From the UHGV virus genome UHGV-0321443: DNA of 31,784 nt; one strand, 5' to 3'. The position numbers and the translations under genes are program-made. Under the pieces are notes generated by a model. That model worked only from the letters and a program-made list of their open reading frames with translations. It had not been told where the DNA came from and did not search any database. Shown one piece after another: positions 3,185-15,158 of the stretch. Source of the DNA: a virus. Every line of letters begins with the position of its first letter. Position 1 is the first letter of the stretch.

Positions 3185-3901
<717 letters not shown>

Positions 3902-4634: not shown

Positions 4635-4655
4635 CTGCTTTCTATGGAGTTAATT

Positions 4656-5456
4656 ATGGCAAAAAAACCTACACCAGACCAGGTAAAAAAGATTCGTTCC
4701 GGCATTACCAAGAAAATACGGTTTGAGGTTTTCAAGCGCGATGGCTTCAAATGCCAGTACTGTGGGAGTTCTGCGCCAGACGTCATCCTTCATGTCGACC
4801 ATATCAACCCAGTTAGCAAGGGTGGCGATAACGACATGATGAACCTTATTACTTCTTGCGATAGTTGTAATGGCGGGAAAAGCGACAAACTGCTCAGCGA
4901 TAACTCAATAATGGAAAAGCAAAGGCAGCAACTCCAGGAACTTAATACCAAGCGAGAGCAACTGGAGATGATGATCAAGTGGCGAGATGGTCTTAAGAGC
5001 CTGAAAGACGATGTTGTTGATATTGTCGCTACCAAAATTGACGACTGCATTGCACCATTTACTGTTAATGACAATGGGCGAAAATCTATCAAGAGATGGC
5101 TTCGAATATATAAGCTTGAAGAAATCCTCGATGCGATTGAGATTGCCGCAGATAAAAAACTCACCCAAGAAATAACCCATGAGCTTACTGGTGAATTCTT
5201 TGAGTACATCCCTCGCATAGCAGCGACAAAAAGAAAACCGCCAAAAGAACAAAGGATTCTATACATCAGAGGAATCCTTAAAAACCGCATATATATCAAT
5301 CAAAACCATGTAATGAGTTATCTCAAGGCATGGCTTTCATACGACTTAGATCTCGATGAACTTACTGAGTTTGCGAAAACAGTACCTAACTGGACAACGT
5401 TCAAGGAGTGGGTATCTGAACGCATTCGTGAAGCTCAGGAAGAACTCCCGTACTAA
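4656..5456 (+). CDS. HNH endonuclease-domain protein with an unknown C-terminal domain
   Basis: HNH motif region CQYCG...HVDHINPVSKGGDNDMMNLITSCDSCN; SD GGAG before the ATG at 4656; visibly AT-richer than neighbouring genes. Confidence 0.65.
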   Translation: MAKKPTPDQVKKIRSGITKKIRFEVFKRDGFKCQYCGSSAPDVILHVDHINPVSKGGDNDMMNLITSCDSCNGGKSDKLLSDNSIMEKQRQQLQELNTKREQLEMMIKWRDGLKSLKDDVVDIVATKIDDCIAPFTVNDNGRKSIKRWLRIYKLEEILDAIEIAADKKLTQEITHELTGEFFEYIPRIAATKRKPPKEQRILYIRGILKNRIYINQNHVMSYLKAWLSYDLDLDELTEFAKTVPNWTTFKEWVSERIREAQEELPY

Positions 5457-7547: not shown

Positions 7548-8159
7548 ATGCGAATAAAAAAACCAATTGATCACGATGAGCTTCTGTCAACATTATCATA
7601 TGACTCAGAAACAGGAATATTTAAATGGCTAAAAACAAATTCAGTAGTAAGAGTAAAAGGTAGTATTGCTGGAGGTGTTAGTGGTGGTTATATATGCATT
7701 AGCATAAATAATGTTTTGTATTATGCGCATAGGCTTGCTTGGTTCTATGTATACAAAAAATGGCCTCCTAAGTTTATTGATCATGTAAATGGGAACAGAC
7801 TTGACAATAGGATTTCAAATCTAAGACTGGCAACAGAGGAGCAGAATGCAAGAAACATTGTAGGTAATAGGTTAAACACATCCGGTGCGATTGGAGTGTC
7901 TTGGGATAAGACAACTGGCAGGTGGAAGTCTTATGTTGGTTATAAAAATAAGACAATATCGTTAGGGTATTTCGATAGCAAAGAAGATGCAGCATTCATA
8001 GCAGCACTAGCAAGAAAGAAACTATATGGAACTTATGCGAGTAAAGCACTTAATTGCGAGCATGAGCTTTTATCTCAATTTAATAATGATGAGGATAAAC
8101 TTGCGGAATATCTTAAGGAAAAATCTAAAAGGACTCGAAAGCGTGTTAAAAAAAGATAA
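7548..8159 (+). CDS. HNH homing-endonuclease-like protein with AP2-like DNA-binding domain
   Basis: HRLAWFYVYKKWPPKFIDHVNGNRLDNRISNLRLATEEQNARN is a typical HNH_3 signature; gene is conspicuously AT-rich; followed by a strong terminator. Confidence 0.65.
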   Translation: MRIKKPIDHDELLSTLSYDSETGIFKWLKTNSVVRVKGSIAGGVSGGYICISINNVLYYAHRLAWFYVYKKWPPKFIDHVNGNRLDNRISNLRLATEEQNARNIVGNRLNTSGAIGVSWDKTTGRWKSYVGYKNKTISLGYFDSKEDAAFIAALARKKLYGTYASKALNCEHELLSQFNNDEDKLAEYLKEKSKRTRKRVKKR

Positions 8160-8445: not shown

Positions 8446-8628
8446 ATGAGCGAGCAAATATTCAGAGAGATTAAGCCACGGTTTTATCGCAAGGTAAGGG
8501 TAGTTTATCAGGACGAAAACAAGACCTGTGCATACGCCATTCATAATGGTCGGTGGTCAGTGTTCGACACCAAAAACTTCGAGAAGAACTTCGAGAGGAT
8601 TAAGGGTGATGAGGAAACTAACATTTGA
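8446..8628 (+). CDS. Hypothetical small nin-region protein
   Basis: AAGGAG SD 5 nt before the ATG at 8446. Confidence 0.35.
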   Translation: MSEQIFREIKPRFYRKVRVVYQDENKTCAYAIHNGRWSVFDTKNFEKNFERIKGDEETNI

Positions 8629-9049
8629 ACTAAGAAGCCCCATCCATCAGCAGAACGCCATTCAAGCTATCCAGCAAATCCTTCCAGACCCAACCAAACC
8701 AATCGTAGTAAGCATTCAGGAACGCAACCGCAGCTTAGACCAGAATCGAAAGCTTTGGGCTTGCCTTGGTGACGTCTCTCGTCAGGTTGAATGGCATGGG
8801 CGCTGGCTGGATGCAGAAAGCTGGAAGTGTGTGTTTACCGCAGCATTAAAGCAGCAGGACGTTGTTCCTAACCTTGCCGGGAATGGCTTTGTGGTAATAG
8901 GCCAGTCAACCAGCAGGATGCGTGTAAGCGAATTTGCGGAGCTATTAGAGCTTATACAGGCATTCGGTACAGAGCGTGGCGTTAAGTGGTCAGACGAAGC
9001 GCGACTGGCTCTCGAATGGAAAGCGCGATGGGGAGACAGGGCGGCATGA
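8609..9049 (+). CDS. ninB: NinB-like recombination protein
   Basis: Translation [57 protein letters not shown]... matches lambda NinB from memory. Confidence 0.8.
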
Positions 9050-9240
9050 GGCGACAGCGACGAAGTTTCACCGACATCATCTGCGAAAACTGCAAATACC
9101 TTCCAACGAAACGCTCCAGAAATAAACGCAAGCCAATCCCCAAAGAATCTGACGTAAAAACCTTCAATTACACGGCTCACCTGTGGGATATCCGGTGGCT
9201 AAGACATCGTGCGAGGAATACAAGGGGATTGACGCGATGA
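9046..9240 (+). CDS. ninE: NinE-like protein
   Basis: [52 protein letters not shown] matches lambda NinE from memory; ATGA overlap with the ninB stop. Confidence 0.75.
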
Positions 9241-9319
9241 TTTATCCGGGGCTATATTCCTCACACGCCAGCAAAATCTGGCGTCGGGATTGGCGTCCCG
9301 GATAGAAACCGCGACAGAG

Positions 9320-9342
9320 ACACGCCGCGAGCGTGTTTTTTA
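9320..9342 (+). terminator. Rho-independent terminator in the nin region
   Basis: acacgc-cgcga-gcgtgt hairpin followed by tttttt. Confidence 0.55.
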
Positions 9343-9502
9343 TTGTCGTATGCACGCGCACATCTGAATTATGGTGGGCTGTGTGGGGGCGGAGAGATCC
9401 GCGCCGGTCGGTTTCCCGGTTACGCCAACCCTGCACAGTTCACCGCCAGACGATTGGCGTCGTCGGTGGTGAGTCATTTAGAAACCACCGGAGAGCGTCA
9501 CC

Positions 9503-10180
9503 ATGACAACTCAAATTTCTGTCGAAACTCTTTCCCCGATCACCCACAACCAGATCCCCGTTATTACAACTGAACTTCTTGCGCAGTTATACGGAACAAA
9601 AATCAAAAACATTTCGGATAACTTTCTTAACAACACGACGCGATTCGTGGTAGGGAAGCATTACTTTAAAATTGAAAGGAACGAATTACGCGAGTTTAAG
9701 AACAGACCCGAAACAATCGGGTTAGTTGGTAAAAATGCCCGCTCCCTCATCCTCTGGACAGAACGCGGAGCAGCCCGTCACGCCAAAATGCTCGAAACCG
9801 ATCAGGCGTGGGAAGTGTTCGAAAAACTGGAAGACTGCTATTTCAGCCAGTGCGAGAAAAATACTGGCAAACAAGAGAAGAAGCCCAACGGGCTTTCCGC
9901 AAAAGAAACAGACAGCCTTGTTTGGCTGTGGGATTATGCCAACCGCTCACAGGCATTGTTCCGTGAGTTGTATCCCGCATTAAAACTGATTCAGTCTGGC
10001 TATTCCGGCATATGCCACGACTACGGCTATGAGTTCTCGTATATCATCGGGAGGGCGAGGGGCGTTTTAATTAATCACACGCGGGATATAGATATTTATG
10101 AGCCTGACGGGCCGACGAACCTTCTGGCATGGGAAAGGCTTAAGAACAAAGAGTTGCCGCCTTCACTGCATCGCTACTGA
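9503..10180 (+). CDS. Antirepressor-like protein (ORF6N/Bro-N-type N-domain fused to a P22 Ant-type C-terminal domain)
   Basis: C-terminal roughly 100 aa are near-identical to the C-terminus of the Ant-like protein at 30744..31664; N-terminal domain resembles ORF6N-type antirepressor domains. Confidence 0.55.
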
Positions 10181-10222
10181 CAATTGACAACTTAACAAAC
10201 CCAGCTTCGGCTGGGTTTTTTA
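9868..10222 (+). repeat. Direct repeat copy A (antirepressor 3' coding region plus terminator)
   Basis: Aligned by eye with 31352..31705: about 170 bp near-identical, the rest roughly 80% identical; equal length and same orientation. Confidence 0.8.
10200..10222 (+). terminator. Rho-independent terminator
   Basis: cccagc-ttcg-gctggg hairpin followed by tttttt. Confidence 0.7.
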
Positions 10223-10254
10223 TTGCTGAATTTTCAATATGAGAGGACATGACA

Positions 10255-10977
10255 ATGAATGAGCTGATAAATAGCAGCATCATCAAAATGACAAGCATTG
10301 AAATCGCTGAGTTGGTGGGAAGCCAACACGGTAATGTCAGAATATCAATAGAACGTCTGGCAAAGCGTGGGGTGATTCAACTTCCTCCAATGCAAAAAGT
10401 TGAAAATAAACAAACAATTAGCCCTAACAAATTCACAAGCGTGTATATATTCGAAGGCGAACAAGGTAAGCGAGACAGCATTATTGTCGTCGCTCAGTTG
10501 TCGCCGGAATTCACCGCTCGTCTTGTTGACCGTTGGCGAGAACTCGAAGGGGCAACCGCGAAAATACCACAAACCTTTTCTGAGGCATTGCGCCTTGCGG
10601 CCGACCTTGAAGACCAGAAGGCTGAACTGGAGAAACAGCTTGCTCTCGCAGCACCTAAAGTTGAGTTTGCCGATCGCGTTGGCGAGGCCAGCGGAATTTT
10701 GATTGGAAACTTTGCAAAGGTTGTTGGAATTGGTCCAAACAAACTGTTTGCGTGGATGCGCGATCACAAAATCCTTATTGCTTCAGGTTCCCGGCGCAAT
10801 GTGCCAATGCAGGAATATATGGATCGCGGCTATTTCACAGTGAAAGAAACAGCGGTCAACACAAATCACGGAATACAGATATCGTTCACCACAAAAATCA
10901 CCGGGCGTGGTCAACAGTGGCTGACCAGAAAGCTGCTCGATAACGGAATGCTGAAAGTAACAGGGGAGGCTGCTTAA
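10255..10977 (+). CDS. Rha-family regulatory protein / antirepressor (Rha N-domain with KilAC-type C-domain)
   Basis: N-terminus IKMTSIEIAELVGSQHGNVRISIERL resembles Rha; C-terminal region resembles antirepressor C-domains. ATG at 10255 has better SD spacing (GAGAGGA) than 10249. Confidence 0.55.
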   Translation: MNELINSSIIKMTSIEIAELVGSQHGNVRISIERLAKRGVIQLPPMQKVENKQTISPNKFTSVYIFEGEQGKRDSIIVVAQLSPEFTARLVDRWRELEGATAKIPQTFSEALRLAADLEDQKAELEKQLALAAPKVEFADRVGEASGILIGNFAKVVGIGPNKLFAWMRDHKILIASGSRRNVPMQEYMDRGYFTVKETAVNTNHGIQISFTTKITGRGQQWLTRKLLDNGMLKVTGEAA

Positions 10978-11267
10978 TGGCTAACCTACGCAAAGAAGCG
11001 CGCGGCAGAGAATGTCAGGTACGTATTTACGGCGTATGCAATGGCAATCCTGAAACTACAGTTCTGGCACATTACCGGATGGCTGGAATTTGCGGAACGG
11101 GAATGAAACCTGACGACCTGATCGGCGCATGGGCTTGTAGTGACTGCCACGCGGAGATCGACCGACGCACAAGGATTCTCGACAACAAAGACGCCAGACT
11201 TTACCACCTCGAAGGCGTGATCAGGACGCAGGCGATACTGCTGAAGGAGGGGAAGATTAAGTCATGA
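10977..11267 (+). CDS. DUF1364-like (YbcO-like) zinc-binding protein
   Basis: 96 aa with Cys/His-rich motifs (C..C....H....C..C..CH); sits immediately upstream of rusA as YbcO does in DLP12-type prophages. Confidence 0.5.
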   Translation: MANLRKEARGRECQVRIYGVCNGNPETTVLAHYRMAGICGTGMKPDDLIGAWACSDCHAEIDRRTRILDNKDARLYHLEGVIRTQAILLKEGKIKS

Positions 11268-11626
11268 ACGAATATCAGTTTGTGCTTCCATACCCGCCGT
11301 CGGTGAACACCTACTGGCGAAGACGGGGAAGCCAATACTACATCAGCGATAAAGGCCAGAAATACCGAAAAGACGTTCAGCAAATAATCCGCCAACTCAA
11401 GTTAGACATTTTCACCAAATCAAGACTCCGCATCAAAGTCATCGCAGACGTTCCAGACTCCCGCCGCCGCGACCTCGACAACATCCTGAAAGGTTTCCTC
11501 GACTCCCTTATCCACGCCGGATTTGCGGAAGACGACGAGCAATTCGATGACATTCGCGTAATTCGTGGTGTGAAAGTACCAGGCGGACGGCTTGGAATAA
11601 AAATCACCGAACTGGAGAACGTATGA
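11264..11626 (+). CDS. rusA: RusA-family Holliday junction resolvase
   Basis: 120 aa; YPPSVNTYWR...RRRDLDNILKGFLDSL...GGRLGIKITE matches the RusA pattern. Confidence 0.85.
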   Translation: MNEYQFVLPYPPSVNTYWRRRGSQYYISDKGQKYRKDVQQIIRQLKLDIFTKSRLRIKVIADVPDSRRRDLDNILKGFLDSLIHAGFAEDDEQFDDIRVIRGVKVPGGRLGIKITELENV

Positions 11627-11766
11627 ACAAAGCATTCGAACGATATATGCGCCAGCGTTATGGCAATCGCTATGACCTGACGCGAGATGTTGAAGGTTTC
11701 TACTGTAGTGAAATTGTGAAACGAATGTTTGAAGTTTGGTGTCATTGCAAAGGATGGGAGGTCTGA
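11623..11766 (+). CDS. Hypothetical small protein (47 aa) between rusA and the Q-like gene
   Basis: ATGA overlap with the rusA stop and TGATG overlap with the next gene; hand-translated MNKAFERYMRQRYGNRYDL... Position analogous to small genes upstream of Q in DLP12-like prophages. Confidence 0.3.
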   Translation: MNKAFERYMRQRYGNRYDLTRDVEGFYCSEIVKRMFEVWCHCKGWEV

Positions 11767-12380
11767 TGCGGCTAACTCCAGTATTCAGCATGGTTAACTT
11801 CATTAATGACGCGCACTTTCGCCGCGTATGGAGACACCCGAAGAAAACCATCAACTCTAGCCAGAAAGCATGGGTTCATTACATGTTACAGGTATGGGGC
11901 AAGGTTAATACCGGAGATTGCTCTCCAGGTGGTGCAATTAACGTTATCGGTCGTCTGATGATTCGCAGTCAGTGGAGCGATGACAAGGCTAAGCAGATAG
12001 AGTCTGTCGTCATGCGCCTGTACGAAGAAGATGGGCTGCGCGGAGATGAGCTATACAAGAAAGCTCGCGAACTGGTCATTCCTCAATCATCGTTTAGCCA
12101 CATCATCACTCTCGCCAAAGAATCAGATGATGCGGCTTTCGTTGAACGTGTGATGGTTAAAACGTTTCACCGTGAAAGCCCTGTCCGCGATGTAGCTATT
12201 AAGCGATATTGCAATCGCAATTGCACGCAAGATATAGCCAGGATTATTTCTTATATAACAGGTGCTGATATTCAGTATTGTCGTAAGCGAGTGGTGTGGT
12301 GTGAGAAAGTGCTGGAGTCAGAAATGTTTTATGCAATGAAACGAGAATTGGAGAAAGAATTTCCATTAATAGCGGCCTGA
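11766..12380 (+). CDS. Putative late-gene antiterminator (Q-like), assigned by position
   Basis: Last gene before the late intergenic region and lysis cassette; SD GGAGG; Cys-rich C-terminal region. Family not confidently recognised. Confidence 0.45.
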   Translation: MRLTPVFSMVNFINDAHFRRVWRHPKKTINSSQKAWVHYMLQVWGKVNTGDCSPGGAINVIGRLMIRSQWSDDKAKQIESVVMRLYEEDGLRGDELYKKARELVIPQSSFSHIITLAKESDDAAFVERVMVKTFHRESPVRDVAIKRYCNRNCTQDIARIISYITGADIQYCRKRVVWCEKVLESEMFYAMKRELEKEFPLIAA

Positions 12381-14660: not shown

Positions 14661-15158
14661 ATGAAATCATTAACCCTCTTCAATCAACCAATTCGTATCG
14701 GTGAAGATGGCATGATCTGCCTCACTGATATGTGGAAAGCCAGTGGTAAAAGTGAATCTGAATCGCCTTACCACTACCTGCGAAACAAGCAGACCAAAGA
14801 GTTCTTAGCCGAGCTGGAGAAAAACCACGAATCTGTGGTTTTTACTGAGCGCGGTGTACACGGTGGAACATATGGCGGGAAGTTTGTTGCTTATGATTAT
14901 GCAGCATGGCTAAACCCCGGATTTAAATATGCAGCCTATAAAGTCCTGGATGACTACTTCACCGGAGAACTTCAGCATCGCAACAGCTTAAGTGCGCAGC
15001 TCAATATGAAGTGTCATGAGTTTGATCAGAAAAAAGATATGGCGAGCTTCTGTGGACAAGGGCTGGCGGCATGGCGCTATACGAAGCCAGTGTTGGTCGC
15101 TGAGATTAACTCCCTGGCTAACCAGCTGCAGATAACGATCCCCGGGCTTCCGGGATGA
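14661..15158 (+). CDS. KilA-N domain protein
   Basis: N-terminal region resembles KilA-N DNA-binding domains; lies between the lysis-cassette terminators and cos, so probably a moron with its own promoter. Confidence 0.5.
   Translation: MKSLTLFNQPIRIGEDGMICLTDMWKASGKSESESPYHYLRNKQTKEFLAELEKNHESVVFTERGVHGGTYGGKFVAYDYAAWLNPGFKYAAYKVLDDYFTGELQHRNSLSAQLNMKCHEFDQKKDMASFCGQGLAAWRYTKPVLVAEINSLANQLQITIPGLPG

Follow-up and report, generated by a model that had tools for sequence, protein, structure and literature searches.

The gene pair ant-roi lies in the nin region of a lambdoid prophage contained in UHGV virus genome UHGV-0321443, of which the whole stretch of 31,784 nucleotides (nt), here called the window, was analysed. 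The pair is probably best understood as two units of different origin: an ant cassette gated by RNA (about 9229-10218) and a resident gene of the nin region, roi. Established here are the identities of the genes and RNAs, the orthology relationships, the limits of the cassette and the covariation of the RNA elements. The pair itself is already known as a widespread, partly characterised feature of lambdoid phages of the Shiga toxin (Stx) and HK022 types; the present analysis adds the IsrK/C4 gate with its covarying specificity elements, the boundaries that a comparison with HK022 gives the cassette, an effector domain and a terminator common to both ant genes of the window, and a fourth gene of the Bro domain network.

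The RNA leader of the ant cassette

Three plus-strand matches to Rfam families, isrK, c4-a1b1 and C4, lie in the 263 bp that separate ninE from ant (Table 1). The IsrK-like segment (9265-9345) folds at -30.5 kcal/mol (z -2.8) and the C4 RNA at -43.8 kcal/mol (z -3.8), a value that none of 200 shuffled sequences reaches. In the minimum-energy fold both C4 elements, a' and b', are unpaired, with a' forming the loop of hairpin 2. The counterparts of these elements occur twice, once upstream in the IsrK part (a1, b1) and once downstream beside the ribosome-binding site of ant (a2, b2), where a2 ends 4 nt 5' of the Shine-Dalgarno (SD) sequence GGAGAG and the ant ATG follows at 9503. For b2, complementarity to the C4 loop extends over 7 of 7 positions. 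Duplex energies computed between C4 and its targets were discarded, because most of their value came from the long closing stem and from overlapping sequence.

The RNA model was tested on homologous cassettes. These were gathered from viral contigs (IMG/VR loci) with a pattern anchored in the 5' stem of C4, giving 85 unique sequences, and were examined by an alignment-free test for sequence that is shared between the upstream IsrK part and the downstream leader beside ant and is present as its reverse complement in the C4 core. At least one such three-way element is found in 83 of the 85 unique cassettes and two elements in 62; the shared sequence averages 12.1 nt between own partners vs 2.9 nt between mismatched partners. 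The b variants include TTGGCGT, TTAGCAC, TTAGGAAC, TTTGCAC, TTGGAAC, TTCGAAC and TTGGTCT, the a variants GAAACC, TCGAAAC, TCAACC, CTAAAAGG, CTACAAAGG and TACGGA, and the two combine freely, many combinations being represented among the cassettes. Two loci of the IMG/VR set (L009-L128), L025 and L045, contain two cassettes each.

The cassette is directly followed by an ORF6N N-terminal domain in 73 of 99 unique downstream segments; among these 73, P22_AR_C is present in 27, and 25-26 then continue into roi. The gate goes with ORF6N, the C-terminal domain being exchangeable. Stx2a phages of the PA2 type show the same arrangement: in PA2 (locus L006, KP682371.1 4642-5576) a homologous IsrK/C4 cassette, 78% identical but differing in its a and b elements, stands ahead of the gene for an ORF6N protein whose C-terminus is different from, and unrelated to, that of the window Ant. 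The PA2 cassette lies near the left genome end, beside a HigA-like gene and another 'antirepressor'. Across a four-phage alignment (window, phi24B, Gifsy-1, phage PA2) the hexamer motifs TTGAC and TATATT of the promoter-like site are invariant.

A close counterpart that has been studied by experiment is the isrK-orf45-anrP locus of the Salmonella prophage Gifsy-1, whose leader is 80% identical to that of the window at the DNA level and carries the same b element. Shared components are the promoter (the isrK promoter corresponding to the promoter-like site at 9229-9258), the IsrK sRNA (small RNA), the C4-like segment (STnc1160/orf45) and a downstream gene of ORF6N type. In Gifsy-1 the IsrK:orf45 pairs G28:C162 and G31:C159 were validated by compensatory mutation (PMC4825925); with the start of the Rfam isrK match, 9265, taken as the transcription start, they fall on b1:b' positions 9292:9426 and 9295:9423 of the window. 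The two loci differ in position, that of Gifsy-1 being downstream of Q and the window cassette upstream of it, and in their effectors: AnrP and Ant are nearly identical in the N-terminal ORF6N part, have unrelated C-terminal domains and are 68% identical overall. No Rfam match to isrJ occurs in the window.

The layout also corresponds to the immI operon (c4-icd-ant) of P1/P7, where ant expression is blocked when C4 RNA base-pairs with complementary target sequences close to the ribosome-binding site. As in the window, C4 and its target lie on one transcript there, and the targets are duplicated upstream (a1, b1) and at the ribosome-binding site (a2, b2). The gated proteins are different: Ant1/2 of P1/P7 are of AntA/KilAC type, whereas the gated protein of the window combines ORF6N with P22_AR_C, and KilAC occurs in roi, outside the cassette. 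P1, moreover, uses the C1 repressor, while the window is a lambdoid prophage with a cI repressor. In P1/P7 icd is coupled to ant; the window has no icd homologue, and its leader open reading frame (ORF) ends 30 nt short of ant, the two frames being set against each other by position and coupling and not by direct comparison to P1 Icd.

The first-pass annotation had suggested looking upstream of the ant-like genes for LexA or repressor sites as induction inputs; none was found, and upstream of ant stands an RNA switch of the IsrK/C4 type. LexA boxes (CTGT-N8-ACAG, at most 1 mismatch) are absent near 9229-9503, 10181-10255 and 30381-30744, and over the whole window such sites number 9 against 11.3 expected. 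Direct LexA control of the ant genes of the kind seen in Gifsy phages was consequently rejected, no LexA boxes lying nearby. Lambda-type OR and OL sites are present in the window; a search with the palindromic lambda consensus, up to 3 mismatches allowed, returned only OL1 (1612) and OR3 (3909), and thus no operator near any ant-like gene and no sign of direct cI control.

Ant, Roi and the boundaries of the cassette

Both reading frames that the first-pass annotation had placed side by side are present, roi with its start at 10255, and the types it had assigned to them, ORF6N and Rha/KilAC, agree with Pfam, pRha remaining sub-threshold. In Ant, ORF6N covers amino acids (aa) 12-96 (73.1 bits, E 2e-20) and P22_AR_C aa 125-197 (85.1 bits, E 4e-24), and the protein falls in PHROG 377 'anti-repressor Ant' (E 4.5e-83). 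In Roi, ANT/KilAC spans aa 128-230 (113.9 bits, E 6e-33), the Phage_pRha match reaches 26.4 bits (E 1e-5) against a cut-off of 29.9 bits, and the protein is assigned to the PHROGs family 'anti-repressor Ant' (E 1.3e-93). Domain annotation places both in antirepressor-named Pfam/PHROG families. NCBIfam holds no family for the nin-region Ant, Roi or the second, tail-region Ant of the window, and a sequence search of solved structures with these three proteins gave chance-level matches only.

Two starts are possible for roi, 10249 (242 aa) and 10255 (240 aa); the latter is the better one, because an SD sequence, GAGAGG (10241-10246), lies 8 nt upstream of it and it is the RefSeq start in strain N32. 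The stop codon of roi overlaps the start of ybcO (TAATG), and roi is therefore part of the nin operon. Clerget and Boccard (1996) reportedly found Roi to be a helix-turn-helix (HTH) DNA-binding protein whose site lies inside its own gene, beside one for integration host factor (IHF). The IHF consensus WATCAANNNNTTR has zero exact matches in the whole window, which is uninformative.

The placement of the pair in the nin region, as first described, is borne out by its neighbours, NinB (8606-9049) and NinE (9046-9240) upstream and YbcO (10977-11267), RusA (11264-11626) and a Q-like gene (11736-12380) downstream. The terminator reported between the two genes is likewise there (-15.1 kcal/mol, z -4.7, reached by 0 of 200 shuffles). 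It closes the ant cassette.

The boundaries of this cassette emerge from the comparison with HK022. The ninB-ninE DNA is 96% identical to that of HK022, and from 10251 onward roi-ybcO-rusA is 91% identical, with HK022 Roi being homologous over its full length and 82% identical. HK022 is without the ant cassette, and 150 bp stand there in place of the window's 1017 bp (9234-10250). Therefore, ant and its flanking signals form an indel cassette beside a resident roi.

In the Stx phages phi24B, Min27, 933W-like and 1717 the order ninE-ant-roi is the same, with DNA identities of 93-97%, and the tandem has been described by Smith et al. 2012 (PMC3430580). Ant of phi24B is 95% identical to the window Ant across 225 aa and its Roi 98%, whereas its element b is TTAGCAC in place of TTGGCGT. 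Two further differences are that the Stx phages carry ninG downstream, where the window has ybcO and rusA as in HK022, and that the window has lambda immunity. A search with the 2.25-kb ant-roi region gave matches in 514 phage records; of 5,426 complete E. coli genomes, 2,549 had a match, which in 137 extended across at least 80% of the region. The original observation of the tandem with a distal ant consequently adds little, both being standard annotated features of Stx/lambdoid phages, and Ant has already been partly characterised in phi24B; the practical value lies in annotation and interpretation. Most genome annotations omit the IsrK/C4 leader, and a nin-region ant should be read together with it.

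Table 1. Features of the window that bear on the ant cassette, roi, the tail-region module and the repressor.
Feature	Coordinates	Strand	Description
Prophage repressor, lambda cI type	3185-3898	-	HTH + S24 peptidase (Pfam); lambda cI-like translation
Sigma-70 promoter-like site	9229-9258	+	TTGACG, 18 nt, TATATT; 10/12 matches; at ninE 3' end
c4-a1b1, RF03163	9252-9304	+	50.8 bits vs gathering score 46.7, full length
IsrK-like sRNA / c4-a1b1 target module	9265-9345	+	Two hairpins, then intrinsic terminator (9321-9345)
isrK, RF01394	9265-9341	+	78 bits vs gathering score 50, full length
Element b	9290-9296; 9422-9428; 9454-9460	+	b1 TTGGCGT (IsrK); b' ACGCCAA (C4); b2 TTGGCGT
Element a	9305-9311; 9409-9415; 9481-9486	+	a1 GAAACCG (IsrK); a' CGGTTTC (C4); a2 GAAACC
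C4 antisense RNA, RF01695	9367-9450	+	64.2 bits vs gathering score 45, full length
Leader ORF	9371-9472	+	33 codons; conserved ATG inside C4; counterpart by position of Gifsy-1 orf45
Downstream target region beside ant ribosome-binding site	9454-9495	+	b2, a2, SD GGAGAG (9490-9495)
ant	9503-10180	+	225 aa; ORF6N N-terminal + P22_AR_C C-terminal; phi24B Ant orthologue
Intrinsic terminator closing ant cassette	10197-10218	+	9-bp GC-rich stem, then T run
roi	10255-10977	+	240 aa; pRha-like N-terminal (sub-threshold) + ANT/KilAC C-terminal
Fourth Bro-network gene	14661-15158	+	KilA-N 57.6 bits + ORF11CD3 50.5 bits (Pfam)
mnt-like divergent ribbon-helix-helix (RHH) gene	30006-30380	-	124 aa; Pfam Arc 30.8 bits vs 20.4 cut-off
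arc-like gene	30498-30671	+	55-57 aa; Pfam Arc 19.1 bits, under 20.4 cut-off; directly upstream of tail-region ant
Hairpin + T run, arc-ant spacer	30680-30713	-	-22.1 kcal/mol, z -4.8; P22 sar terminator position
P22-type ant (tail region)	30744-31664	+	306 aa; P22_AR_N 152 bits + P22_AR_C 85.9 bits
Direct repeat copy	31349-31707	+	P22_AR_C-coding segment + terminator; 88.9% DNA identity to 9865-10223

The tail-region module and the prophage background

The immI-type ant noted in the first-pass annotation at 30744-31664 is indeed of that type, with P22_AR_N and P22_AR_C domains, an arc-like gene and a divergent mnt-like gene. It sits between the tail genes L (29291-29989) and K (from about 31720) and is followed by a terminator at about 31684-31706. 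Its product is 56% identical to P22 Ant over the full length, and the module resembles P22 immI (mnt-arc-ant-sar) in having a divergent RHH gene and, at the place that arc occupies in P22, a putative arc-like gene; it differs in the longer mnt-like protein (124 aa), in an arc-like gene that scores just under the Pfam cut-off and in its site between lambda-type L and K. RefSeq names the 97%-identical locus of the mnt-like gene in another strain 'Arc family DNA-binding protein'. The minus-strand hairpin at 30680-30713 is a candidate terminator of a sar-type antisense RNA. A conserved TATACT on the minus strand lies at the start of the tail-region ant, and together with the hairpin (30672-30760) it resembles the P22 sar arrangement. 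No Rfam match to sar antisense RNA appears in the module at E values up to 1.

The two ant genes of the window are linked by a direct repeat of 360 bp (9865-10223 and 31349-31707, E 2e-126), the copies of which are 21.5 kb apart. The last 104 codons of the nin-region ant and its terminator fall inside this repeat, so that the C-terminal 104 aa of the two Ant proteins are 88% identical and the terminators of both genes are homologous. P22 Ant, by comparison, has only the C-terminal domain in common with the nin-region Ant, at 83% across 104 aa. If the copies recombined, Q would be lost along with the lysis genes, the head genes and most tail genes, and the ORF6N N-terminus would be joined to the other C-terminus.

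All three ant-like genes that had been counted are present; the count falls short, as a fourth gene of the same network, with KilA-N, stands at 14661-15158. Three such genes in one prophage are nothing unusual, since Stx2 phage 1717 carries the same three at the same positions, with ninE-ant-roi and an antirepressor between tail genes L and K. YYZ-2008, 2851, Stx2a_F349 and WGPS4 are among the matches to nin-region and tail-region queries alike, and phi24B possesses a distal d_ant besides ant and roi. The fourth gene follows closely on the Rz lysis gene, at about the position that d_ant has in Stx phages.

The prophage background is that of lambda. A match to Rfam Lambda_thermo, the cIII thermoregulator element, is found at 26-84 on the minus strand (88.5 bits), and, taken with the lambda-like cI, OR and OL, it identifies the window as a lambda-immunity prophage with an HK022-like nin region. 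Two ORFs on the minus strand, 1855-2505 and 2493-2900, occupy the position of lambda rexAB between N and cI, a usual site of accessory or defence genes, and have no match in Pfam or PADLOC; strain N32, whose nin region is near-identical, has a Ser/Thr kinase and a RuvC-family protein at this position instead. The early right operon also includes two HNH endonuclease genes on the plus strand. That at 7548-8159 (HNH_3 + AP2) has an unannotated counterpart ORF in HK022 with 98.8% DNA identity, and that at 4644-5456 stands at the expected position of the replication initiator and gives weak PtuB-like PADLOC matches.

Proposed mechanism and its alternatives

Experiments on relatives concern both the gate and the effector. 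With ant deleted, phi24B retained about 27-56% of the output of its late promoter pR' after norfloxacin, a defect that ant on a plasmid complemented (PMC3064807). In Gifsy-1, expression of AnrP induces the prophage, the isrK promoter transcribes anrP without translation, and translation of anrP rises more than 100-fold when IsrK sRNA is provided in trans (PMC4825925). P22 Ant, for which a broad repressor specificity has been reported, is reported to inactivate lambda repressor as well (PMC3064807). For the ORF6N gene, an antirepressor-like function of the kind originally proposed thus has experimental backing in the relatives phi24B Ant and Gifsy-1 AnrP; for Roi it comes down to the KilAC name.

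We infer the direction in which the RNA switch works in this phage, the binding of Ant to lambda cI and the action of Roi. The cassette would be read in the order promoter, IsrK-like sRNA with its terminator (b1, a1), C4 (a', b'), leader ORF, b2/a2 at the ribosome-binding site, ant and terminator. The promoter is probably active in the lysogen, where ant would remain untranslated. C4 may pair with the targets beside the ant ribosome-binding site, as in the P1/P7 model, or alternatively in cis with the upstream IsrK segment, as in 'structure A' of Gifsy-1. A surplus of short IsrK RNA or more read-through would then shift this three-way competition, and Ant would be made. Ant would help to inactivate the cI-type repressor, its presumed target, and so hasten derepression, an action that the Ant of phi24B and the AnrP of Gifsy-1 apparently have. 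Because this repressor resembles lambda cI, SOS induction can go by RecA-stimulated cleavage, with Ant at most accessory, which fits the partial phenotype of the phi24B deletion. In the same account roi is a nin-operon gene, found in HK022 without ant, that would encode a DNA-binding regulator of pRha/KilAC type with an IHF-linked phenotype, and the tail-region ant is a third, independent unit of P22 immI type, presumably under Mnt/Arc control.

Several observations weigh against this account of the gated ant. At the RNA level, a2 matches a' at just 6 of 7 positions. The leader ORF stops 30 nt ahead of the ant start codon, whereas orf45 overlaps the start of anrP in Gifsy-1; a script check on Gifsy-1 returned the published orf45 of 45 codons with its 4-nt ATGA overlap. 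The length of the leader ORF and its spacing to ant also differ widely across the cassette family; given this variability and the 30-nt gap, translational coupling of the Gifsy-1 kind may not operate here, and such coupling was rejected as a conserved feature of the family. Furthermore, the P1 model, in which C4 represses, and the Gifsy-1 model, in which IsrK activates and the cis b1:b' pairing is silent, both fit the sequence alone. At the protein level, the phi24B deletion left superinfection immunity unchanged and had only a partial effect (PMC3064807), and the literature consulted yielded no case of a repressor bound directly by an Ant of ORF6N type. Since the C-terminus of AnrP is different, its activity is not assignable to the domain shared with P22 Ant.

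An extension of the two-unit explanation may be entertained tentatively: a two-gate OR switch acting on the lambda-type cI, combined with a C4 'barcode' for cross-talk among lambdoid prophages. In the first part, the P22_AR_C effector would stand behind two gates unrelated to each other, one of RNA (IsrK/C4) and one of protein (Mnt/Arc), the latter perhaps joined by a sar-like RNA. In the second, the combination of a and b elements could decide which co-resident prophages silence each other's ant or, by means of IsrK-like decoys, unlock it. Heteroimmunity of P1/P7 does rest on C4 specificity variants.

It is rather unlikely that all three Ant/Roi proteins are true repressor-binding antirepressors providing several induction or anti-immunity inputs and heteroimmune cross-talk. 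All three do match Pfam and PHROG families named for antirepressors, P22 Ant is active on more than one repressor, lambda's among them, Gifsy antirepressors work in trans on non-cognate repressors, and the C-terminal domain of the P1 antirepressor Ant1 is KilAC (PMC9043618). Against this, Roi is encoded within the nin operon (ybcO overlap) and not in a separately gated module. The sole published phenotype of Roi, to go by a reference title in PMC3430580, is that lytic growth is inhibited in IHF mutants. The KilAC domain of Listeria AriS, moreover, inhibits the SOS response and not a phage repressor (PMC9043618). AriS-like proteins include pRha + KilAC architectures such as that of Roi (PMC9043618), although AriS has no close sequence relationship to Roi and SOS inhibition was shown in Listeria proteins only. 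The lack of LexA boxes and lambda operators near the ant-like genes, and the unchanged superinfection immunity of the phi24B ant deletion (PMC3064807), also speak against three such inputs. The label 'antirepressor' on Roi is an extrapolation from the domain name KilAC; on Roi/KilAC proteins in general it denotes a domain and not a function.

A comparably doubtful alternative regards Ant and Roi as DNA-binding modulators of transcription or SOS that tune late expression or the host SOS response directly. It draws on the treatment of ORF6N, pRha, KilA-N, ANT and P22_AR_N/C as one domain-swapping Bro network (PMC10111431), to which the domains of both proteins belong, and on the lowering of SOS by the AriS KilAC domain (PMC9043618). 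Against it stand the C-terminal domain that the two ants share, which has 83-88% identity to the one in P22 Ant, a repressor-binding protein of the classical kind, and the fact that the same type of gate controls the true antirepressor of P1/P7. It is highly improbable that the genes serve defence, anti-defence or exclusion as cargo with no part in the phage's own lysis-lysogeny switch: each ant module is an insertion that has a terminator of its own and ORF6N does match the PADLOC candidate defence family PDC-S05, but those matches (aa 18-107, best E 2.5e-6, 24.9 bits) are weak, confined to the ORF6N domain and to an uncharacterised candidate family, and the experimental phenotypes of close relatives concern induction.

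Cross-talk with co-resident prophages is plausible, most likely through the wide repressor range reported for P22 Ant and through shared C4 specificity classes. If the barcode reading were true, it would point to an RNA-level network of immunity and cross-talk beyond the single P1/P7 precedent. If C4 classes do mediate such cross-talk, they would matter for how Stx prophages and others are induced together in polylysogenic E. coli.

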